A stretch of 64,000 nt of DNA, taken from contig MU004186.1 in NCBI GenBank assembly GCA_010093605.1, forward strand, positions 1,406,616 to 1,470,615, in the 5' to 3' direction. The position numbers and the translations under genes are program-made. Of this stretch, positions 4,932 through 48,940 are shown piece by piece (the first letter of the stretch is position 1; every line of letters begins with the position of its first letter). The notes under the pieces are model-generated. The model did no database searches. It was not told the origin of the DNA and saw nothing but the letters and a program-made list of their open reading frames with translations. The stretch is from Lophium mytilinum (lineage: Eukaryota).

Positions 4932-7900
4932 CTTGTAAGATGTGCGTTCCGATCAATAACAACCAGTCGTCTATACCCCGTTGTTTGAATCATGTATTAG
5001 TCCACAAGTCAGTTCCATGTATTTATTGGCCAGATATATTCCTTTGCTGCCGCTCCGGATGCCCGCAATTCGTCAACTGGACTCATGACAATGCAGCGAG
5101 AGGAACTCAATCCACCTAAGGTAATATCGATTGCCATGTACACCATAGATGACCTTAGGATAGTAGCAAGTTCTTCAAATATACTGGTCTAGCTCTAAGT
5201 GGTCTTGATTCTTGAACTCGCGAAGTGCTCGTTTACAGACGAGATGCCACGCTCACGGTTAGATTGCCAATACGAAGGCTGCTAAAATGTCGGATTTGGT
5301 CCTAACAAGACACTGTCACCATCTCTAGAAATTTCCTTGGCCACAGGATGTGCAAAGGGGCTGTATGGTGCATAACCTACCAGAATTATATCCCTGCAAG
5401 AGTGGCATGCTAGATACAACACGGGGAGCTCCCCGAATTGTACTACATGATCCTCGAGCAGTCTTCCGTGTCGAATCTGAGAAAGCGGCACACGAAAGAC
5501 CATGGTCGATCTGCCAGTTCCCGCTGTTGTCAGCCGGACTTTACGAGTTGGGCTGGTGGCTACTCACCGCTAGTTTTCAGGCTTTGCCGTCTCACGCAAT
5601 ACGAACTCGTCTGGGTTCTTTCCAACAGACGGCACTTTCCCGTGGGCTGTGATGAGAAGCACAACCTGCAGACGTGGTTCTTGTAGATGCCGCATGACGG
5701 AGACTTTCTTTAGCCCTTAGACGCATACTATAATTAGCGTACCAAGTGTTCACTGTCTTCCAATGGCTTTCAATCTCTGGCAAAGCTGCTTGAAACCAAT
5801 AGGCTCGATCTCATGGAATTTCTGTGTCGTGTCTTGCGGGAAGCCACCTGCAGATATTCCACAGAATGCGTCTAGGGGCCGTAAGCCTCCAGCTGCAAAG
5901 GCAACTCCGGCCAAGAAAGTCTCTTTTCTTCTTCCAGTACCCTTACAGCCACCTGCACGCTAAACGAAACACACTCCGCAGGCTGTAGTCACCCTGAATT
6001 GGGTGCGACACGCTCGGCTCTCAATCTGCAAGCCACGGCGCTAGTTTCTCGTTTGGGCCGTCCATTTGTGACAGGTCGAATCTGATGCAATCGGGACACC
6101 TACTATTATTATCTTAACACGAGCCTACGAGGACCTTGTGAGAGTCACAAATCATTACTCATGCTGTTCGTTTCAATGTCCGGGCAATAGATAGCTGCAA
6201 TTAAGCTCGTGGTCACATTAATCACTGCTTCACCAGTGGCCTGAGCCCTCAGCAACGCTAACGTGCCAGGTTAAAGACTGTGGAGACTCTGTGCTCCACT
6301 GCAGGAGCTGCGTAGTCAACCGGGATTTTTCGGAGACTGCTGCTGTTTGTCTGATTTGTGTGATCGAGCGCCGCAAGTCGCCTACGCAAGTTAGATGAAG
6401 CGTGTTGGGAGATATGCTATGGGCAACGGGTATGTGCAGCGACTCGGCACTATCAGGTTACAGTCATGCATTGACTCCACCCACCCAGATGTTCAATGGT
6501 AATCTGTTGAGCGCCACCCGCATCCGCGCCCGGACGGGAAGTGGAGCTTTCCAGGACGCTAGATAGGTAGGCAGTGGATGTGATGGTGACTTCTGATATT
6601 CCATAGTATCACCAACAACGCACGTTCAATTCTACTCTACGAATCATAAACGCTGCGAGCAAGTCTGGACCGCCGGTGAAGGGCTGTAAAGTGGGCCCTC
6701 CTAGCACCGCTGTGCTCTGTTCGTCATGGCCCGGAAGAGGCTTCGGGAACACACCTCCTATTCCAGCAATCTCTAGCGGATCTTTTGCTCCAGCATGCAC
6801 AGAGCCACTTCGGTCAGCAACAACTCCCCCGCCCACAGACAATTTTATTGACCAGTCGTCTTTTGTTGTTGCAGTGATGGAACAGGACTGGAGCGACTTG
6901 AACTGGAGCTGGATGGAGGGCCTCGGAAAAAGCACTGGACTCGATTGAATTTCTATTTGAACCGCATGAGTTTGAGGTTATGGATGGTCTTGGAGCTCTA
7001 ATGGTTTATAGTTCCGTGTATATATATAGTAGGAAGAGGTGGTGTTTTAATACCTGTGAGGCTCGGAGGTCCGCATTTCTCAGCCTCTTATTGGCCTGCT
7101 AGATCTAATCTGATTGCCATCTGTCTCGGAACTAGATCTTGACAGAGCTATACGACACAGTCACTCTATCTTATAATGCAGCCTTTCCGTTTTGCAACTG
7201 ATATTCTATTGTTTGCATCATATCGTGTCTGTCTGCTTGGCATTCAAGTGAGGCATTGATCAAGACTGCCACGCGTCTTCCTACATTAGGCAATTATCTA
7301 ACTGTTTTAGGTAATCCACCTGGCCTGTTTAGGTAATTCGTATGGCGTCAACCTTACAAAGGTACCATGGAGCTCCACAGAGGTTTCTGGTGGACCGTGG
7401 GGATTTGAGGCCTCATCTAGTCCACTCCAATCCAGTCCTATAACTGTGTTATTGCCTTGGGCGAGTAACTAATCATTTCTCTTTATTGCTCGTGCGGCCC
7501 TCAGAGCTAGTGTGCAAAACACCCGAGTCCCAATGCCATGCAGAAGTATCATGATGATAACATGACGAGGAATGATCAAGTTGTTTGCATGTGAAAGGTC
7601 ACCCAGCTATGCTACGTGAGAATACTTTGAGCGGGGCAGTGTGTAGCATTATAGAGCGAATTATTTAAATATTAGCAATAGTAGTCATATCAACGCTCAG
7701 TTCCATTTGCAATTGCAAACAAGTAGACGTCATTTTGTAGGTAATCGATGTTTATACTTGATGTCCCGAACTCGGACGTCAAACTAGCGAAAAGGGACGG
7801 CAAAGACCGACAAAGGGAAGAACGCATCAAGATACACAAAGTCAATCATCGAAACTGACCACTTCTATAATGAAACATCGTGAAACATTCACGAGAAAAT

Positions 7901-14767: not shown

Positions 14768-16474
14768 GGTGAGATGAAAGCTAGCTCCACGGTTTGAAGA
14801 CCCTGTACTTTTGCTTGCATAGCTTGGAGAGTCAATTCAAAAGGTACATGCCTTCTCTTTTATATTCTTCTTTGTAATTACTCCTCTTCGTCTACATGCT
14901 TACCGGCTATGCGGATATGATGTCGAGCATTATTGCACCATCCAGCTTGGCACACGACAATGCCAGGAAACTAGCTCTGTCGTGCATGCATCTTAGTCTG
15001 ACTACGACGAACAACAATGCAATTGATACTCGTCATCCAAAGGCATTCCCCTTATATACAAGAGCAGCCCTCCATCAGCTCGTGAACGCGCGGTTCTTAT
15101 GCACCAATGCACAAAAGTCAAAACCCTCAACCCCCTTCCCACTAACACAACAAACACCAAACACTTCCCGTCAAGTGGTTTCCAGCGGCTAGGCCCTGCA
15201 TCTCCCAAGCCCTACCCCTGCGCCCTTCCCCTGCCACTGCTTCCACATCCAGGCAAGCGCTCCCGCTGCAACAAGAATTTCGCCCGGTTCCTCGCCACCC
15301 GGGGTAGGGCGATCGCGGCTCGCCAGTGGCGCCGCACAAAGGCGGGGAAACTCTGGGGATTGAAGCTGTGCCTTGAAGCCGGTCATCGGTAGCCCGGATC
15401 TACTCTTACCCGGGCTTATAGCGTGCTCTTATAGGCGGATTAGCTGATGTGACTGGGGAGGGGAAGGGCGTCGGGATTTAGGAGGAATTGTGCTGTGCAT
15501 AAGGGAGGGGTGAAAGTTGTGACGAGGGGGTTGAGTGGGTTGAGTGGGTTGAATAATCTTCTTAGTGTGGATGGGCGGGTTTTGGGGTGATTGGTGTTTT
15601 GGCGTGACTTTGTAGGGGTATTGATGATAGGATTCTTAGTTATTGGGTGCAATGTGAGAGATTGCGGTGCTTGAAGGCTTTACAGTCTACCTCATGGTAT
15701 GCGCTATGGCGCCAAGGGTTTTTCCTTCGGGAGATCTCACGGCCTCGGGGGGTAACGCACGGGTAAATATTGGTGAGATATTGGGTTCTGCACTCCACAC
15801 TTTTCCATGCGCACCAAGAGTTTCCTTTACAGGCGGATATATGTAAAGTGTGTTTCTGCGCTTCGCTGGCTTTGCACCAAGGGTTTCTCTATTTTGAGTT
15901 TGCCGACATCCCCGCTCACGGGGCGTGTCTTCTCCCCCTTCGTTCTATCTTTCGACAAAAGATCCGCGCCAAGTCCAATCTAACTATTTAGATTGGGGTA
16001 GGTTGGTTTAGTTAGATGACGGTCACGTGGTCTAGTAGTTGCTCTAAGCTCTTTCGCTCCAACCCCTAGCATGCTGTCATATCATTGAGAGCGATATATA
16101 CCCATTAACCCCAAGACTTGCTCGCCTTGTATTCGCCAGCCTCACTTTCGTCTGACATATCTAGTAGGCTATCGCTGTTTTAAAGCGTTTTCGTCCTCAG
16201 GTTGAATCTCCATTTCTAGCGAACTATCGCTATAGTCGCACGATATATTTGAAGAAATCTTGTGTTGGGCCTGTGCTGGTTGCTCTATGTCCAAGTTGCC
16301 GGCCAGTAACGTATGCGAACCTCCAAGGTCGGCCCCTCAATGGGATTGGTAAAGAAGTACTAACGGTAAGAAGGGACTTGGTCTAGCTGAAGCAGATGGT
16401 CAGCTGTCTAATTGAGTGGGCGTGGGCTGAGGGCGGAGAGAAAAATATGCGAAGCTGTTCCCCTCCGGATGAGG

Positions 16475-16510
16475 TTAGCGCTAATAGTCAAAATTGACTA
16501 TTAGCGCTAA
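16475..16510. repeat. Perfect 17-bp inverted repeat (hairpin) with a 2-nt loop
   Basis: TTAGCGCTAATAGTCAA-AA-TTGACTATTAGCGCTAA, extended imperfectly by ATGAGG/CCTCAT. Confidence 0.9.
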
Positions 16511-16719
16511 GCCCTCATTCGTCTTAGCGTACTTGGGGGTCACTCAATCAACCGCGACCTCCAGATGATCCTCATCGTACCCGTTTCATGATGCGTCCTA
16601 TCTGATTCACTACTCGTATTTTCCGTTTTGCAAAACTGAGGGACGTATCCGCCAGATTTATATGATGACGCGACGACCTGTAAGAAGACAGAAGACGTAG
16701 ACCACGTATTGGATGATCG

Positions 16720-16975
16720 AATGTAGTGTATCCAGCGCTCAAGCTCTTGTAGACCAAATACAGCATCTGAGGCGCCATATGGACGAAGTCAGCATGTCGT
16801 CGGAGGAATTCGAAAACCTATGGTAGCAGCACATGGAAGAGTGAGTGTCTTGCCCCTGATGAGTGGATTCCAGGTTTCCGCCTCTCCGCTGGCATGGAGT
16901 ACTTGGACGCAAGGCGACGTAATGCGTGAAAGAATACATGCCATGTTCGTGCCGCAAGGGGGTTCGTGTCCTCGG
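16720..16975 (-). pseudogene. Highly degenerate fragment of an EST1/EBS1/SMG6-7-like gene (copy A)
   Basis: Across frames: LRHEH.., LRRLASKYSMPAERRKPGIHS, HRFSNSSDDMLT..MAPQMLYLVY. These are colinear with the better copy at 17.8-18.4 kb. Confidence 0.7.
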
Positions 16976-17099
16976 TGGGACTGATCATGCGAAGTACGTG
17001 GTCATAAGGTTGCGTACTCGGATATCTCACTGTTTATGCGCCGCTCTTGCTCCCTTGATGCCACTATGCGGAGGACCTCAGCCATTGAGTTGCCCGGCA

Positions 17100-17395
17100 G
17101 GCAATAGGTAGCCAGATTCTTACTGCGACGACGTTTATTACTGCGACGATGTTTACATCAGGTCTATGATTTGAAAAAACTATCGGGGCACCCCATACAG
17201 TGCCAACCGAGTGCGCATGTAGATGAGCAGTGCGCCATGAATCAAGTCAACGATTTCCGCAGCAGGGGTTGAGACGGTAGGAACAAGTTGTGATGCTTCT
17301 GCAGCTTCTCGTGTTTGGAGCCGAGTTTTGATCGGCTCTTTATGTGATCCTGGCCATGGGGGTTTACGGCTGTTGGATGAAAAAGCACGCCCCGC
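17100..17395 (-). pseudogene. Probable protein-kinase C-lobe relic; its 17101-17262 part is repeated at 47281-47427
   Basis: Minus strand reads GVLF..RKPPWPGS...AAEIVDLIHGALLIYMRTRL, resembling kinase subdomains IX-XI. The DNA-level similarity to 47281-47427 is obvious by eye. Confidence 0.4.
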
Positions 17396-17789
17396 CTAAG
17401 ATTAGGGGGACCGGAAAATAAGCGACATTATATACTCCAACAACGGCGACGGCCCAATGCTCACTTGAAGTATTAGGTCTGCCTTACATGCTTTAGGAGT
17501 ACAGATCGCGAGCAACCCATAAGGTGTAGAGGAGTTCTTGTAGCCAGTAGCATCCTTAGTCCACCTGGTATCACGCTGGGCACGTGACTGTAGTCCAGAA
17601 CCGACTCCTAGCGCTCATGAAAGGAAGTGTATGACGCACTAGAACGTCCAAGAATAGGGTCAATCAAAGTAAGAATTGACTCCCGAGCGCTCATGAAAGG
17701 AACACAAAGGAGAGAACGAGGATAGTAGTATAGCTGCTGAAGCGCGTTTGGGCGAGCGAGGATTGCGAAATGATGATATAGGCGACCAA

Positions 17790-18370
17790 CATAAAAGCGT
17801 TTTTTAGCGGCTTTCCTGTACCAGAAGCGAGTGACGCCTGCCCACGTCTTTCAATCAGGCAGTTCCTCGTCCTCAATGATCACGCAGTTCCTCGTCCTCA
17901 ATGGCCATGCGGTACCGACCAAGATCTCCTAGACACTCGATCCAGGTGTCTCAAATGTGGGTACGGTGTCGTAGAGCAAAGACATCATCTATTAGGCCAG
18001 ATAGATGAACGCTAGCATGTAGTCTAGCGACTCTGGCAGCCGGCGTCGTAGCAACTCCAGAAAAGAGTGAATACCGTGCTTCCACATCCGCGCAGGCATT
18101 GAGTACTTAGATGCAAGACCCCGTAGTGCGGGAGAGGCCGAAGGGTGCTGACTGGCGAGAAAAAAGTCATGATGCTCATGCAATATGGTCCTATGTAGAG
18201 CCATTAATGCCTGCCAGCGGTTATTGGCCAGCTTAGGCAGAACCTTGAGCCCGATCAACGTGAATGCATCCGGTCTCGACCATGGTCAGGCCGGCGTATA
18301 TAGACTTGACCTCTGAAGCTAGCTGTTCCTGGGATATCGGGCGTGCATCGGGCTGTGGGATGAGATCTGG
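17790..18370 (-). pseudogene. EST1/EBS1-like (SMG5-7 family DNA/RNA-binding domain) pseudogene, N-terminal conserved block (copy B)
   Basis: QPDARPISQEQLASEVKSIYAGLTMVE, WQALMALHRTILHEHHDFFLASQHPSASPALRGLASKYSMPARMWKHGIHSFLELLR, then TAA TAG, MMSLLYDTVPTFE, a frameshift, TWIECLGDLGRYRMAIED and TWAGVTRFWY. Confidence 0.9.
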
Positions 18371-18749
18371 TACCAATCCTCGCTTGACGTATCTGGTGTG
18401 CCTCATGGTGCCTCCGAATTCCAGGGTACAAGCGCCTTTGGTGGCATCGTGAGGCCTAGTCCGTAAAAGATGCAGGTCTTTGGAATGAAATGGGGAGCGC
18501 AGGCAGAAATCCGTCCTATCCTAAATTCGGGGCAGCGTGGGAAGGAATCCGTCCAATGGCCCGTGAATGGATTGACGGCCGGATATTGCCCACGCTGGGA
18601 ATGGGCCTTCGCAATTAGTAGCCCTCTTATTCCGCCTGGTGTCTAAACAGGCGCACGTGACTGTAATTCAGACGGTAGGATGTCGGATCCAGCAGGCAGC
18701 TTCTTTGACTGCAGAGGTGATTGAAATTTTCCGAATGGATCCCACGTAT

Positions 18750-19100
18750 GTGCCGAGTTACGACTCCACACCTGCCCACGTATAAGGTCTTCCTCGGGAA
18801 GAGGCACGGCTGCCCACGTATAAGGTATTCCTCAGGAAGAGGCACCTGTCATATCCTTTGCGGGCAAGAGATCGTTCTTCACGAGCAACTCGAGCCTTTA
18901 GGACTTCGAAAACGTATTGGAAATCGAGCCTTTAGGACTTCGAAAACGTATTGAGAATCGAGCCTTTAGGACTTCGAAAACGCATTGAAAAAAGGTGACG
19001 AGTCCGTCCCCAGGAGTTCTGGCGTTGTCGGCGAGGGCCGAGACGTATGGAAAGGTGAAAGAGTACAAGAAGGACGTGAACATGCGGAAGAACATTCTTA
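18750..19100 (-). pseudogene. EST1/EBS1-like C-terminal fragment (piece C), frameshifted, with internal tandem duplications
   Basis: NVLPHVHVLLV, GLVTFF-NAFSKS and PLPEEYLIRGQ / LIRGQVWSR match the remembered C-terminal motifs of this fungal family. Confidence 0.7.
18890..18991. repeat. 34-bp tandem repeat x3
   Basis: Unit TCGAGCCTTTAGGACTTCGAAAACGTATTGGAAA with minor variants. Confidence 0.95.
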
Positions 19101-19182
19101 TCCCCTCCCCGATCTTAAGCCTGTAAATATACGTTAGATGAGTTGTATGTACTAGGACGGAATTGACAGAAGAGAGTACCGT

Positions 19183-19567
19183 TCATGTCGCTTCTCTCCA
19201 TCGCTCAACGGTAATTTCCGTGTAGTATCGACATCTCTCTAGATTCAGGTTTGGAGGAAAAATAGATTGCGCGGCTCGTCGTCCAGCAAGTGCGGGCGTT
19301 TGAGCCTCGCGAGAAGCGTTCGCTGCGGGTCTTCGAGAAAGTGTCAGCACGCGAGTTTACAAAAGGAAGCAGAACTTACTCATAGAAAGGGAGCGTATAG
19401 TCATTGTCTTGGGAGTGTCTAGAGAGACGCTGACGACGAGCTTCTCTCCAAGCAAGAATACCGAAGACAAGACAGCCCACGCCGATGATAGACGCGAGGA
19501 CGACTCCCGCGATATTAATATTGTCGCCGCGGGACTGCGCCTGCAGTGGTCTCGAGGGATCGGACAT
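19183..19567 (-). CDS. Small single-pass membrane protein (~111 aa); intron 19331-19379
   Basis: MSDPSRP...NIAGVVLASIIGVGCLVFGILAW REARRQRLSR (TM plus basic cluster). Canonical GTAAGT...CTGAC...AAG intron with in-frame exon 2. Confidence 0.55.
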
Positions 19568-20882
19568 GACTGGCTGCAACAAAAAATTTGGGCTTGGAAG
19601 ACGACTGGTGGTTGGTCAGTTCGCTGACGTAGTGGCGTCGGGAGTGGGTGCCTGCTGAGCACAATCGGACCCGGGGTTACTCATGCTTTTGAATGTTCTT
19701 GTGCCCGTGTGCACCAAGGCGAACTGTATGTGATGCGAACCATCCAAGGATATGAGAAGGCAACCGGTCCGTTAAGACACCGACCACACTAAAATATCCT
19801 CGGGAGCTGACGGCTGGTCAGAAATACGAGCATGCAACGAATTAAAAGCTATTAGATGCCGGTGAAAAAGGCAAACCACGCACCTTCATAGCTCGCTAGA
19901 AGGCGGCCGACAGCCCAGAAGGCGGGGCACACGAGTGTGATAAATGTAAACGCAGGCAACCACATCTCGGAATGCCCAATCCGGCATGATACACCTGCTT
20001 TGCATGCCTGACGGACTGACGACTGCTCTGACGTTCTCGGTTCGCAGCGATTGTGTCGCTGCTGCGCCATCCCGCGCCTCAATGTGATGCATGTTTTCTA
20101 TGCAGGCAAGGCTCCCGGAGTGATCCAAGGCGCTCCAAAGCTGGCGACATTGCGTTTGGCGGATGCCTGGCATCAAAGGGATGAGCAGTGGCTTGGATCC
20201 ACACCGTTTCCGATACTATGATCCCCAGTGAGAGGCATGAAAGTGATATTATACGCCCTCGTGAGTATTTAGCATCGAATAATGGCTCTAGGTAGCCTCA
20301 TCGAACGGAGGACACCGGGAACGTCATACTGGGTCTTAATAACTGACAAGCGCAAGAGACTAGTTGATCAAACGAATCCATATCTCCTCTATCTTTCCTA
20401 AATCAGCTGCGAAAGATAGCAGGCGGGAGGAGGACACAGGGCTGATTTCCGAGTATGCCATCAAGTGCAATGCAAGTGGCACCCGGGTGGCCTTCGGCAA
20501 CCGCCTCTGATCATGCATCCTTGATGAGACGCGTCCTCGGGCCTGATGCACAGCGCACAGTGTACGAACATTACCACATTTCATAAGCGTAAAAACTTCG
20601 ACAATATGTCCAGCACCGGCGCGCAGCTGATACCGCTGCCGAGCCCAAAGGAGGAGCTGCCTGCCTAAATAACAGATGTCTGGAAAATGCATTTTCTCAG
20701 AAGTGACATTCAAGCGTCAGCTGAATCGCATCGCAATGTATCTAATCCATGAATACGCTTTAGGCGTTGATTGCGGTGCGTTGAGACACCGTAAAGCGAG
20801 CTTTCTGACAGTGATGAGAGACTTTCTCACGCGCCGCCGCAGGGTCGCGGCTAAATTGGCGCCGGCGGGGCTTGCGTCGTGC

Positions 20883-21010
20883 TGCCTCGAGCGAGAGGAA
20901 CGAACGAAAGTCCAGCCTTACGATTAGTAAAATGAGAATTACACGAGTTGCCTCGAGTGAGACGTACGAACGGAAGTCTAGCCTTGTGGTTAGTAACATG
21001 AGAATTACAC
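20883..21010. repeat. ~66-bp imperfect tandem repeat x2
   Basis: TGCCTCGAG(C/T)GAGA..ACGAACG.AAGTC.AGCCTT...TTAGTAA.ATGAGAATTACAC occurs twice. Confidence 0.85.
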
Positions 21011-21229
21011 AGCATTTCTAGCCTGGTAGAAAGAGGAGCGTTTCCACCCTTGAAGGGCATCGGGTGAAAGATCCTAGCCTTGTGGAGCAGGTCACTAGCC
21101 TTGCGCTTGATGAACGCAATACCTCAAAGCTTTGATAGACATAAGCAGATGCCTAGATAGTTTAGAAGAGGCGACTCATTCGCCAAAGCTTCCATCGTTT
21201 ATTGAAGTCCAGATAATTGAAAAGACATA

Positions 21230-21455
21230 CAGTACTAAGCCATAAATTTTGGCACACGGATACCACTTTTGAGTGTCGCTTTTGGCAGCTGGACGCCACT
21301 GCCAGGGGCGGCCCCATCGCGAGGACATATCTCGGTCAAGAGGAAGCTCAGATCACGCGGTCCAAAACCTGACATGACGCTTGCGTTGTAATCTCCCCAC
21401 GGGAGCACTCCTGGCAGTGGCAACCGAGTGTGCTGCGACTGTAAGCTGGTGCCCG
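21230..21455 (+). mobile_element. Degenerate copy of the CAGT-TIR MITE family
   Basis: TA|CAGTACTAAGCCATAAATTTTGGCACAC left end. The interior is weakly similar to the other copies and the right TIR is eroded. Confidence 0.6.
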
Positions 21456-21855
21456 AAAACGGGGCCGGCATCCTCTATTCAATGCTGACCTAGATACCTT
21501 GGCTCTTTCTTAGGTGTTTCAAGGTCGTTCAGGCGGTTCTACCGTGTTCCTTGCTCTGATTGTTCTGCGCTCCTGTAAACGGTCTAGTGCCGGTCTGAAC
21601 ACCATCCAGCCATCTGAGTTACAGTCACGTGTGACTGCTTGGACACCAATCGGCTTGAACAATGCAATTTGCGACTCTTTCGATTCTCCTAGGATAACAG
21701 CACCTGCTATAGCATAAGTAGAGCGCTTCTTCTCTTCATCCGACTCTTTCTTCCATTACTCATGATATGATATACACCCGAGACCAACAGCCGGGCGCCG
21801 GGGACGTGGGGAGCAACCCTACGTAATATGCAGACAAGAAGAGAAGCAAGGAAAA

Positions 21856-23199
21856 TTAAATATAGGACACTTTCACTCCCATCCCTACCGTCCTCCGCAC
21901 TTTTTCCCACGCAGCCCGCAATATCCGCTGCACCCGCTCTCTCAGATCTCTCCGCCCAAAGGCGAGAGCAAATGCAAGGATGAAAAGGAGAGTCCGCAGA
22001 AACGCCATCGGATTTTGCGTCATCGACTGGGCCGTCTTGAGTATGAGCGTTTGCATGGCAGCCATGAGATTCGAGGCACGTTTGTATAGCCCTGGCGGTG
22101 GACTAATCGCCTTCTTGGCGGGCCGGGAGGCCTTTGACGATGTAGATGGTTGAGGTCGATGCGAGGGACTAGATTTTTTGTAGCCGTCATCTGAGCTGCG
22201 CGGCTGTCTCCGATTCTCCTCTTCCCGCTTCCTGCGCTCGTCCTCTTCACGCGTTTGCTCTGTACGTCGGACCTCGGCCTCTTTCCGCCGCTGCTCGAGC
22301 TGCTCAGCTTGTTGTTGGCGGAGCATCGCCTCGCGGGCTTCTGTCTCGTCTGCTTCTTCACGCAGGGAGTGTAGTGCTAGAAGGAAGGCCTCTTTGCGCT
22401 CGTCGTCGAGCACTTCGCTCATGCTGATGAATTCCCGTGCGTAGTCCCATTCTGCGTTTCGGGGGAGGACGTGTAGGGTGTAGAGTTCAAGTAGCTTGAG
22501 ACGAGAGTTGAGATCACGCGGCGTGCTAGTTCCAGTTGGTGTGTGGGAGGGCCGGCGTTGCAGTGATGAGGCGATGTGGGAGGATATGTCAAAGGTCGGG
22601 TGTGCCGAGGCCGATAGATAGGTTTCGAGGCGTTGTTGGGTGAGTTTTTGAGAAGGCGAGTGTGTGAGGAGGAGGGTTGCTCTGTTCTCTTAGTTAGCGA
22701 GATCGATTTAGGGTCATCAAAGAGGGACTTGCAGGTTTATTACTACTTCAGCGTCGACATCACCCTCGTTTCCAGCATACCCGTCGCGAACAACCTCCTC
22801 CCACACGCTCCCATCACGACATTTTGACACTAGCGCTTTCCACCTCGTGCTTCCAAAGGCGTGTTTGCCCTCCTCAGCCCCAAGCTCGATGACAGAATTG
22901 AGAAACGTGAGATAGAAACTCCAGACTTTGATTCGCGTGCCCCGCGAGGCGGCCGCTACTGGGGCGTAGTTGGGTACTTCGCCGTTCTGTTCGCCATTGA
23001 CGTATTCGTTCTCTGGTGCAGAAATTACCGGCTCAATTGTCGAGAGGGCTTCAGGGAGGCGGCGCGTCAGGAACAGCTGGGCGGCCTGCCGGTAGGCCTT
23101 TGCGATTTGTGATGACTGTTGACGGCTGGAGGAAAGCGAGGAGACGGAGGACGATAGCATGCGCGAGGTCGCTAGCGAGTCGTCGTAGGACATGGCCAT
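21856..23199 (-). CDS. PEX26: Peroxin Pex26 (tail-anchored peroxisomal membrane protein); GC-AG intron 22682-22732
   Basis: YRQAAQLFLTRRLPEALS, RIKVWSFYLTFLN, LELYTLHVLPRNAEWDYAREF and a C-terminal TM followed by KVRRTVGMGVKVSYI. Confidence 0.9.
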
Positions 23200-24090
23200 G
23201 GCGAGGGAGGTTACTGGGCGCGCAGAAGGGGGATTGAGCAGTCCATGGCGGCCGTGAGCTAGGAGGGTCGTGTTTTGTCGAGGTTGAGGAATGCCTGCGC
23301 TACCTCGGCTCTGTCACCTGCTTGTCGTGTTTCGACCAATTCGACCAAGGGATCTCCAACCCGGCTATTCTGCAGATTCCGCTATACCGCATTGAGCGCA
23401 GTCTCCGTTGTCATCTCCCGATGATGCTCACATCGAACTGCATCTCAGACAAGCAATGATATATATAGTAATTCTGACTTGAACCCTTTTTCTACCCAGG
23501 TAGCTGCCAGGTCTGGTCTTTGCACTTGCCTTGCCCATCTAAGACGTTCCAGCGGGAAAGTCAGCCCCTCCCTTCCTCAATGCACGGAGAATACCTTTCT
23601 TTGATCCTTCCAGAACACTCGTCTATCGAGGAAACGCATTATTCTAATAGCATTGGGCATTTTGAGGTACGTCACGTCATACCAGTAAAATATTTACTAT
23701 CGAGAAAATGCGTACTTCCGATTGACGGCGCGTGAGGCGCCTCACAAGACTTCCAAAACTTAAAACAAGGCGCAGACAAGTCCTTTCACCACCCAAAACC
23801 TTGGCTGAGGCCCTCCAGACGACGCCATCACGGATTGTCGTGTTTGCAATTGTCAAACGCTGCGCTAGCTTGTCAAGCACTCTAAGCAACAAACGAGACC
23901 TCTTGTCTCAGCTCCGTCACGTTCACCTTACCTTCGATCGTTTTTGCAACATCCTCCATCACTCCAACCTCAAAGCGAGAACCTTCTATCACTAAGGAAA
24001 GACGTCTTAGTGCGCCATGCCGCCACAAATCCTCGCGGCAAGCCTTTAAACTCATCCACAGACCTCCAGCCTAAGGGATCAAGATCAACC

Positions 24091-35839: not shown

Positions 35840-36025
35840 CAGTACTAGGCCATAAGTCTGGGCACACGTATATCATCACTGCTCGGCTCCGATTTCGCTC
35901 AAAGGACACCAGTGAGAGGGGTTGCCCGCCTAGTCGACTGCTAATGAGTCAAGGAGTAGCCTGATTTGCACTGCTTGGAATTTGACAACGCGCCTAGACT
36001 TTCGAAACCCATGGGAGTACCGCCT
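35840..36025 (+). mobile_element. MITE family copy, right end truncated or eroded
   Basis: TA|CAGTACTAGGCCATAAGTCTGGGCACAC. The interior (GACACCAGTGAGAGGGG..CTGATTTGCACTGCTTGGAATTTGACA) matches the 33800 and 48714 copies. Confidence 0.75.
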
Positions 36026-47280: not shown

Positions 47281-47427
47281 GCCAATAGGTAGCCAGATTT
47301 CTACTGCGACGATATTGACATCACGTCTATGATTTTGAAAGACCATGGGGGGACCCCATGCAGTGCCAGCCTAGTGCGCATATCGATGAGCAGTACGCTA
47401 CGAATCAAGTCAACGATTTCTGCAGCA
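47281..47427 (-). repeat. Dispersed diverged copy of 17101-17262 (kinase-like relic)
   Basis: CAATAGGTAGCCAGATT..TACTGCGACGAT..GTCTATGATTT..CAGTGCCA..GTGCGCAT..GATGAGCAGT..GAATCAAGTCAACGATTTC is shared by both copies. Confidence 0.85.
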
Positions 47428-47803
47428 CGTGAATCATATTGCGCGCGATTTATGTTTGCTCGCTTCACACCAGTTGAGGAGTGGCCCCGCTCGCCGCTAG
47501 CTTTTCAGTCAAAGAGTAGTCTGATTTCCACTACTTCGACCTTTACATGGCGCTGCCGACACTGTTCTTTTACCATGCACTCGCACGCCCTGGTTCCACT
47601 CCTTCTGCGTGCGCCGCTCCCGTGTAAGCTCATGTATACACTACTGCACGAGCCCTAGTGTCGCAGGGGTTTTGCTGTGCCGCATACGCCAAGCCTGCAT
47701 AGCTCCGCGAAGCTTGCATCTGCCAAAGAGTTCAACTTACGTTTTATCCACTTCATTACCTACATAGCGCCTCAGCAAAATCATCTCAGGAGCACTCTCA
47801 AGG

Positions 47804-48713: not shown

Positions 48714-48940
48714 CAGTTACAGGCCACAAGTCTGGGCACACTAGCTCGACACCGCATGGGGTTCCCCCACAGGATTTCGAAGATCCAAGGGTGATGTCGA
48801 GGTTCAAGCAGTGCAGATTGGACTACCTCTTGACTAATTGGCTTCTCAACAGCCAGGGTACCCCCGACAGTGGTGTCGAGTGAGTAAGTTGGAGCCAAGC
48901 TGTAATGAGTCTATGTGCCCAGACTTGTGGCTTAGTACTG
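48714..48940 (-). mobile_element. 227-bp MITE, best-preserved copy, TA TSD
   Basis: TA|CAGTTACAGGCCACAAGTCTGGGCACA ... TGTGCCCAGACTTGTGGCTTAGTACTG|TA. The reverse complement of the interior matches the 35840 copy. Confidence 0.85.

Follow-up and report, generated by a model that had tools for sequence, protein, structure and literature searches.

A fragmented, probably hosted EST1-family pseudogene with unequally decayed pieces in Lophium mytilinum

Anatomy of the relic and its parent gene

The window analysed here is a 64,000-nt stretch of the genome of Lophium mytilinum, a Mytilinidiaceae Dothideomycete (assembly of 43.4 Mb in 49 contigs; contig MU004186.1, termed C6 below, positions 1,406,616-1,470,615), and positions given without a contig or parent label are those of the window. 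The closest proteins with a species name are from Mytilinidion resinicola (98% over 300 aa) and L. mytilinum. A relic of an EST1-family gene occupies the spacer between a lipocalin-like gene, whose Pfam matches are weak and below the cut-off, and a PEX26-like gene, whose name is carried over from an earlier sequence-only reading with no confirmation from Pfam. Sensitive alignment recovered 12 blocks (E < 0.01) across 16162-19105, all of them in the sense orientation of the gene on the minus strand. The sequence-only reading had reported a C-terminal block (18764-19105) lying upstream of an N-terminal/TPR block (17627-18370), followed by a second, more decayed copy, which was confirmed at 16740-16932, and an ORF (open reading frame) scan likewise revealed neither an intact EST1 gene nor a transposase ORF at the relic. 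These pieces stand, and the relic proved larger than had been claimed. The locus was classified as a fragmented, probably hosted pseudogene, consisting mostly of ordinary gene debris.

An intact parent was located on the same contig, about 550 kb from the relic (C6:~870,700-874,200). Its product (P0125) contains EST1_DNA_bind (PF10373, E 8e-13) and PIN (PF13638, E 4e-7) domains and is thus SMG6/EST1-like. When the genome was searched with the parent DNA, 14 matches were obtained, comprising the parent itself, 10 pieces in the window, two on contig C9 and one on contig C12. At the protein level, intact but more distantly related paralogues were detected on C12 and C8 as well as a third, more decayed piece on C9; only the best candidates were scored in these genome searches, so all copy counts are lower bounds. 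The relic is accordingly not the only one in the genome, and one of the three C9 pieces has a junction in common with it. The relic pieces are as follows, with coordinates of the parent in locus L037.

18764-19105, minus strand: copy A, C-terminal EST1 piece (parent 6848-7092; neutral decay 0.10)
18603-18732, minus strand: copy B, piece B1, N-terminal low-complexity region (parent 5141-5271; neutral decay 0.17)
18372-18402, minus strand: copy B, piece B1' (parent 5432-5462)
17627-18370, minus strand: copy B, piece B2, TPR/14-3-3-like region (parent 5654-6399; neutral decay 0.05; strong synonymous excess)
17519-17626, minus strand: B/C junction, a repeat of parent 6324-6354 joined to piece C1 of copy C (parent 5201-5284); recurs on contig C9
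17279-17494, minus strand: copy C pieces (parent 5421-5493 and, weakly, 5865-5889), split by a solo long terminal repeat (LTR)
16637-16932, minus strand: copy C, decayed TPR piece (parent 5911-6085, fused to the start of the next exon, 7274-7379)
16162-16315, minus strand: end of copy C (parent 7387-7543)

In the reading order of the gene, A is followed by B, the repeat of parent 6324-6354, and C, each copy being internally colinear with the parent. The order looks scrambled because three internally colinear partial copies lie head-to-tail, suggesting that the arrangement is a head-to-tail array cut by deletions across its junctions. Identity to the parent ranges from 75 to 94% by block, with a bit score of 820 (E 4e-236) for the main block, and the EST1 pieces are disabled by stops and frameshifts. 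Local tandem duplications of 34, 38, 25, and 18 bp occur, with copy A carrying the 34-bp unit three times and the 38-bp unit twice, and B2 contains a 23-nt deletion, a double stop, a 1-nt deletion, and the 25-bp duplication.

The B1'-B2 join corresponds to a 191-nt deletion with its ends on a quasi-palindromic stretch of parental sequence, where 13/15 positions of an inverted repeat match (P = 0.0007 in comparison with 1430 random breakpoint pairs; six valid junctions tested), and the relic agrees with the inverted arm at both differing positions, which suggests a template switch at this join. Direct microhomology of 7 nt at A/B1 (P = 0.06) and of 9 nt at C2'/C3' within copy C (P = 0.004) was also detected, neither join being clean, and the microhomology test was unconvincing at three other junctions. 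The alignment of the 200 nt between B1 and B1' to the parent was no better than that of shuffled sequences. No relic block spans a parental intron, and piece C4 starts 2 nt before an exon start without the end of the preceding exon. The zinc-finger and PIN exons were not found in the window relic. Outside the relic, a 30-bp inverted EST1 piece, antisense to the parent, is present at 21604-21633 in the 3' untranslated region (UTR) of the PEX26-like gene.

Unequal decay and synonymous excess

Divergence from the parent was partitioned into a component of neutral decay and one of synonymous-only change, the expectations being matched to the type of substitution, such that a piece dead on arrival should show synonymous-only change about equal to its neutral decay. 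Neutral changes per site amounted to 0.051 (interval 0.030-0.075) in B2, 0.039 in the C9 piece C9a, 0.096 in both A and the C9 piece C9b, 0.174 in B1, and 0.192 (0.155-0.233) in copy C. At the same 128 parental sites, non-synonymous differences numbered 4 in B2 vs 18 in copy C (P = 0.003). The multi-age character attributed to the mosaic by the sequence-only reading is borne out by this contrast between B2 and copy C, at least as time since death.

Synonymous differences made up 55 of the 81 found in B2, compared with 23.4 expected, and synonymous-only change reached 0.214 vs 0.051 neutral, an excess of 0.164 (0.092-0.242). C9a gave a similar picture (synonymous-only change 0.229, excess 0.190, interval without zero), and no significant excess was detected in A, B1, or C. 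Changes private to B2 were biased in the same direction (15 synonymous vs 6.3 expected, P = 6e-5), as were those private to C9a (13 vs 6.6 expected, P = 0.003); because both sets are biased, the parent's own evolution cannot explain the excess, which points to three lineages under selection. B2 and this one C9 piece would therefore stem from donors that were either functional paralogues or alleles of deep divergence. Synonymous changes number 15 for the parent, 15 for B2, and 13 for C9a, and the three sequences together make up a near-star. At 17 resolved residues where the parent and Mytilinidion resinicola differ, the relic has the M. resinicola residue at 9 and the parental one at 8 (four more match neither), suggesting that the donors date from near or before the M. 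resinicola split. In both B2 and C9a, the non-synonymous changes fall irrespective of how conserved an alignment column is (P = 0.24 each), a result compatible with either kind of donor.

C9b contains both the internal duplication of B2 and the B/C junction, with no departure from neutrality among its private changes (P = 0.19 each). Owing to these common features, C9b is a secondary copy and not a transposon sister: the mosaic was already dead when it was transferred from one contig to another, the simplest direction being from the relic to C9.

Searches for the MutS, Piwi, and RBM39 families were made solely to find controls, of which the MSH6 and RBM39 relics were analysed. All 11 MSH6 relic segments showed neutral decay of 0.10-0.23 and synonymous-only change of 0.04-0.31, near the dead-on-arrival expectation overall, with scatter. 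The RBM39 relics, which retain introns, were mixed: one fragment had 14 synonymous differences out of 15, two leaned likewise (P 0.06-0.09), and the rest were near neutral. Relics of one gene are clustered in few regions, namely MSH6 on contig C21, RBM39 on contigs C1 and C16, and EST1 on C6 and C9. The RBM39 fragment with 14/15 coding differences synonymous (L191, C16:1350204-1350680) has 7/64 intron differences and may itself belong to a functional chimeric gene or have been copied from a diverged allele. A further side observation from these searches concerns contig C1 (L103-L114), where 13 Piwi-domain matches, several clustered at 829-839 kb and some with stops, represent an Argonaute-family expansion.

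Origin of the array

The reading preferred here, with a probability of roughly 0.55, is that the locus preserves an old tandem cluster of partial SMG6/EST1-like duplicates; the TPR part of copy B would be what is left of a PIN-less paralogue that survived for some time before it died. Under this reading, a cluster of at least three head-to-tail partial DNA copies would have arisen at about the time when the lineage split from M. resinicola, and deletions spanning the junctions, slippage duplications, and at least one template switch would have cut it down, leaving a C-terminal remnant ahead of N-terminal remnants. Copy C and the N-terminal part of B would have decayed from the outset, and the B2 part would have belonged to a copy that purifying selection maintained over most of its existence, as a PIN-less paralogue that was short-lived and died later. 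After that death, part of the mosaic would have been copied to C9, and LTR and repeat DNA would have been inserted. Today the relic is passively transcribed in sense downstream of a micro-gene described below, probably as 3' UTR, and presumably has no function of its own.

PIN-less EST1 paralogues do exist in this genome, on C8 and C12. A former PIN-less paralogue is supported by the fact that B2 begins where the homology of the C8 paralogue begins, and by the two entries each that seven named species have among the best 120 protein matches. The protein tree placed relic_B2, without resolution, within the Mytilinidiaceae clade (100/99), with the second copies of other species mostly in open forks. 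Orthology of the relic with the second M. resinicola copy (P0050) was considered and is not supported, as P0050 lies on another contig than the micro-gene orthologue and fits the relic worse than the parent does.

Several results weigh against the former-paralogue reading. The isolated, 340-bp C9a has its own private synonymous excess, so that a second lost functional donor would be needed; the RBM39 fragment with the same bias means that synonymous bias is not EST1-specific; and few of the differences from the parent are common to copies B and C (2 of 67 sites for B1/C1 and 0 of 72 for B2/C3a), leaving a common founder copy putative. Moreover, neither a start codon nor a promoter of the former B2 gene was identified, and alignment-based detection biases the neutral estimates downward.

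Among the alternatives, repeated homology-seeded capture survives best, though it is rated as unlikely. An old EST1 relic would here act as a landing pad, at which breaks repaired from the intact gene import younger tracts such as B2 in register; with deeply diverged alleles of other individuals as donors, the young pieces would carry allelic synonymous divergence despite being dead on arrival. Such capture would account for C9a and the RBM39 case without lost genes, and it is favoured by B1 (0.17) and B2 (0.05) being colinear yet unequally decayed, by the near-star of parent, B2, and C9a, by the clustering of single-gene relics, and by the young RBM39 fragment, in which synonymous and intron divergence is about 0.11 with almost no non-synonymous change. 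However, it requires very high allelic divergence (pairwise synonymous divergence, dS, of about 0.3 after removal of decay), and the public runs represent one genotype; the MSH6 relics show little excess, and the equal resemblance of relic residues to M. resinicola and to the parent points to old donors. A broader and still more speculative proposal is that homology-seeded copying is unusually active in this genome, with repair continually importing in-register tracts from diverged alleles or short-lived paralogues and passing mosaics to new sites, thereby building EST1, MSH6, and RBM39 archives that feed chimeric or PIN-less SMG6-like genes.

The closest known counterparts are the fragmented and hosted pseudogenes of Fusarium graminearum, of which PMC12311193 reports 71 of 162 as fragmented and 68 as hosted in 3' UTRs, invoking break-repair copying. 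The relic is likewise a partial, non-retroposed-looking copy far from its parent that overlaps the downstream transcribed region of a functional gene; it differs from those described there in its three tandem, unequally decayed partial copies, the secondary copy of the mosaic, and the synonymous excess indicative of once-functional or diverged donors. According to PMC6232500, which concerns SMG7 paralogue expansions, the Est1/Ebs1/SMG5-6-7 family (PF10373, PF13638) tends to expand independently, and the parent with both domains and the PIN-less paralogues on C8 and C12 conform to this family, whereas the window copies have no intact frame and, as far as found, lack its zinc-finger and PIN exons. 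The tandem anatomy, relic-to-relic copy, host micro-gene, and synonymous excess are new here.

As debris the locus is of little importance; as a record, it would document the birth and death of SMG6/EST1-like paralogues in Dothideomycetes, and it is an instance of relic-to-relic copying. Should the synonymous excess stem from the capture of diverged alleles, such relics would preserve, like fossils, haplotypes that have since been lost, and would allow the repair-driven accumulation of fragments to be tested in a fungus with repeat-induced point mutation (RIP).

Some further observations concern the EST1 family. An aspartyl-protease ORF directly follows the PIN-less paralogue on C8 (L042:2246-5602). 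Truncated EST1 paralogues of other Dothideomycetes (P0050, P0068, and P0082) stop near the motif where block A begins and have hydrophobic tails by eye, which may be gene-model artefacts. Pleosporales orthologues (P0005-P0120) are mostly about 790 aa long and without a precomputed PIN domain; the parent and the Lepidopterella protein have one.

Probable host micro-gene, inserted repeats, and remaining alternatives

Upstream of the relic in the direction of transcription lies a micro-gene, with the following features in and beyond it.

19183-19567, minus strand: two-exon ORF for a 111-aa single-pass membrane micro-protein (intron 19331-19379; splice joint in an RNA contig)
19121-19179, minus strand: GT-AG intron, 4 nt past the host stop codon; the next exon opens on block A
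15428-15760, minus strand: GT-AG intron in an RNA contig continuing from copy C

The micro-protein is identical to M. resinicola P0122 (locus tag BDZ99DRAFT_571672) at 98 of 111 residues, with the same length and stop, and a search with its first exon gave no other convincing homologue among 1.84 billion representatives (two weak repetitive matches); a weak Pfam match to EACC1 (E 0.055) is below the cut-off. Run X3 contains the splice joints of all three introns, which are GT-AG on the minus strand and absent from the DNA runs; none of the runs listed is catalogued as RNA, and X3 was taken as such solely from these joints, with contig depths left out of any expression ranking. Its contigs cover 15761-17399, 17668-18028, and 18284-19830, with no cover in the bin 20120-20450. 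Since one contig (19830-18284) connects the micro-gene with A, B1, and part of B2, the remaining ones being separate, the relic is within the downstream transcribed region of the micro-gene, in sense orientation only, and a single transcript down to 15.2 kb is likely. Fusion of the micro-gene to block A was rejected: A does lie in frame beyond two stops, but the stop codon of the M. resinicola orthologue has the same position. As a side observation, an intron at 20978-21230 (minus strand) is spliced in the long 3' UTR of the PEX26-like gene and is a possible feature sensitising it to nonsense-mediated decay (NMD).

Given the RNA contigs with three minus-strand introns, two of them past the host stop codon, it is conceivable but improbable that the relic is kept as regulatory RNA, either as a source of small RNAs against the parent or as a long, intron-bearing 3' UTR through which NMD controls the micro-gene. 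The EST1 blocks are sense-only and thus predict no hairpin, mismatches are frequent at a parent identity of 75-91%, the sequence is decaying freely, Rfam gave no match for the relic, and the contigs do not prove one transcript.

Three inserts interrupt the array. The terminal-repeat retrotransposon in miniature (TRIM) to which the first belongs has a target-site duplication (TSD), and the second has a core resembling a miniature inverted-repeat transposable element (MITE).

17371-17442, plus strand: 72-bp TG...CA solo LTR with 5-bp TSD ACGGC, of a 522-541-bp TRIM
16939-17264, no strand assigned: 326-bp insert, MITE-like core and flanks, 78% identical to C6:1489229-1489536
16316-16636, no strand assigned: insert of about 320 bp with no other genomic match among those listed; perfect 17-bp inverted repeat at 16475-16510

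The solo LTR is 97-99% identical to many genome copies, many of them solo, and all four paired copies examined are 522-541 bp long and non-coding; the TSD is clear in three of these four and in all three solo copies, and the TRIM family (also at L074, L075, L076, and L077) is young. The 326-bp insert belongs to a dispersed, non-coding repeat family, the core of which has inverted termini next to TA (22/30 matching in copy L013 and 12/30 in the 21.2-kb copy; for a third copy the automatic cut of the termini was misplaced). Because it has both flanks in common with C6:1,489,229-1,489,536, it looks copied from another locus and not transposed. The sequence-only reading had seen a kinase relic in this zone, for which nothing was recovered: none of six ORFs across 16923-17427 had a kinase Pfam match at E ≤ 1, no HRD, DFG, or glycine-loop motif was present in six frames of 16900-17620, and the remainder of the zone is further EST1 sequence and the solo LTR. 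The inverted repeat at 16475-16510 has a predicted RNA fold of -27.9 kcal/mol. In addition, a MITE-like family of 215-230 bp was noted at 21228-21433, 35840-36010, 47284-47531, 48725-48940, and L038:8080-8296; it is old, abundant, and frequently arranged in tandem, its inverted ends are bounded by TA, and one copy apparently lies in an intron of an AAA ATPase gene.

The remnants of transposable elements within the relic, the copying of part of the mosaic to C9, and the 17-bp hairpin near the distal end are what could be cited for a mobile element (Pack-TIR, Helitron, or Starship-like) that captured the pieces and spread them, an explanation that is even harder to sustain than regulatory RNA. 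The window and 56 kb of C9 have only EST1-derived sequence in common (four of four blastn matches) with unrelated junction flanks, no transposase, helicase, or tyrosine recombinase ORF was found in 14.9-21.9 kb (autonomous partners elsewhere were not searched for), the solo LTR with its own TSD inside copy C is a later arrival, and the hairpin insert has no other copy among the genomic matches listed. Similar TRIMs, solo LTRs, and Tc1-mariner MITEs are described from Cochliobolus heterostrophus (PMC4112212), with TG...CA LTRs, a 5-bp TSD, and small TA-bounded elements with terminal inverted repeats; compared with these, the elements here are later passengers in the relic instead of its vehicle, and the 72-bp LTR is short. 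Thus, of the recombination scenario in the sequence-only reading, several copies, unequal decay, and an origin by recombination or repair are retained, and the unrecognised mobile element is not, for want of shared termini, TSD, or cargo.

The same reading had suggested cryptic pheromone copies, noting that ebs1-like genes are reported as conserved neighbours of the a-factor-type pheromone gene in Sordariomycetes and Leotiomycetes. The only strict CAAX ORF in 14800-21800, where 0.48 were expected (200 first-order resamplings, P = 0.41), encodes 19 aa at 15142-15201, outside the relic; scans of about 40 kb surrounding the parent and of 56 kb on C9 gave two CAAX-type ORFs each, all of them longer and none pheromone-like. 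These scans cover unspliced ORFs only and would miss spliced micro-genes. As for the neighbourhood, the consulted text of Schmoll 2010 (PMC3068285) names cyanate lyase, EBP2, and a MYND gene, without EBS1; the terms 'ebs' and 'est1' do not occur in the main texts of PMC10569646, PMC10182648, and PMC3068285, and no supporting paper was found in the openly accessible literature. EBS1 is probably a slip from EBP2, and its correction removes a gene-name confusion that could mislead pheromone searches. EBP2 lies on contig C18 here, and none of the three neighbours was seen at the relic, cyanate lyase and MYND without a dedicated search. That the relics mark or carry cryptic a-factor-type pheromone genes is, despite the lone CAAX-like ORF, very improbable: the likeness to the Sordariomycete locus, as given in that text, is one of gene name only, no pheromone-like CAAX ORF was detected, and the host is a Dothideomycete.

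Mis-assembly, for which the short repeats in the region, the coverage of the whole stretch by no single contig, and the possibility that both DNA runs are the source of the assembly might be adduced, can practically be dismissed, as contigs of both DNA runs cross the A/B (18284-23400) and B/C (17413-17694) junctions with no difference, a contig from another study also spans A/B, the pieces are 9-25% diverged from the parent, and the B/C junction recurs on C9 in diverged form. The region is present in three public sequencing runs from two studies; the fragments are real and correctly assembled.

No paper on this locus was found among the listed titles on templated insertions, gene relics, EST1 paralogues, and the species name. 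The insertion boundaries hoped for from lipocalin-PEX26 synteny were not obtained, since KU70, lipocalin, HEM15, the micro-gene, and EST1 occurred at none of 73 metagenomic PEX26 loci (0 of 20 with at least 5 kb downstream). PARN was located upstream of PEX26 in 32 of these 73 loci.

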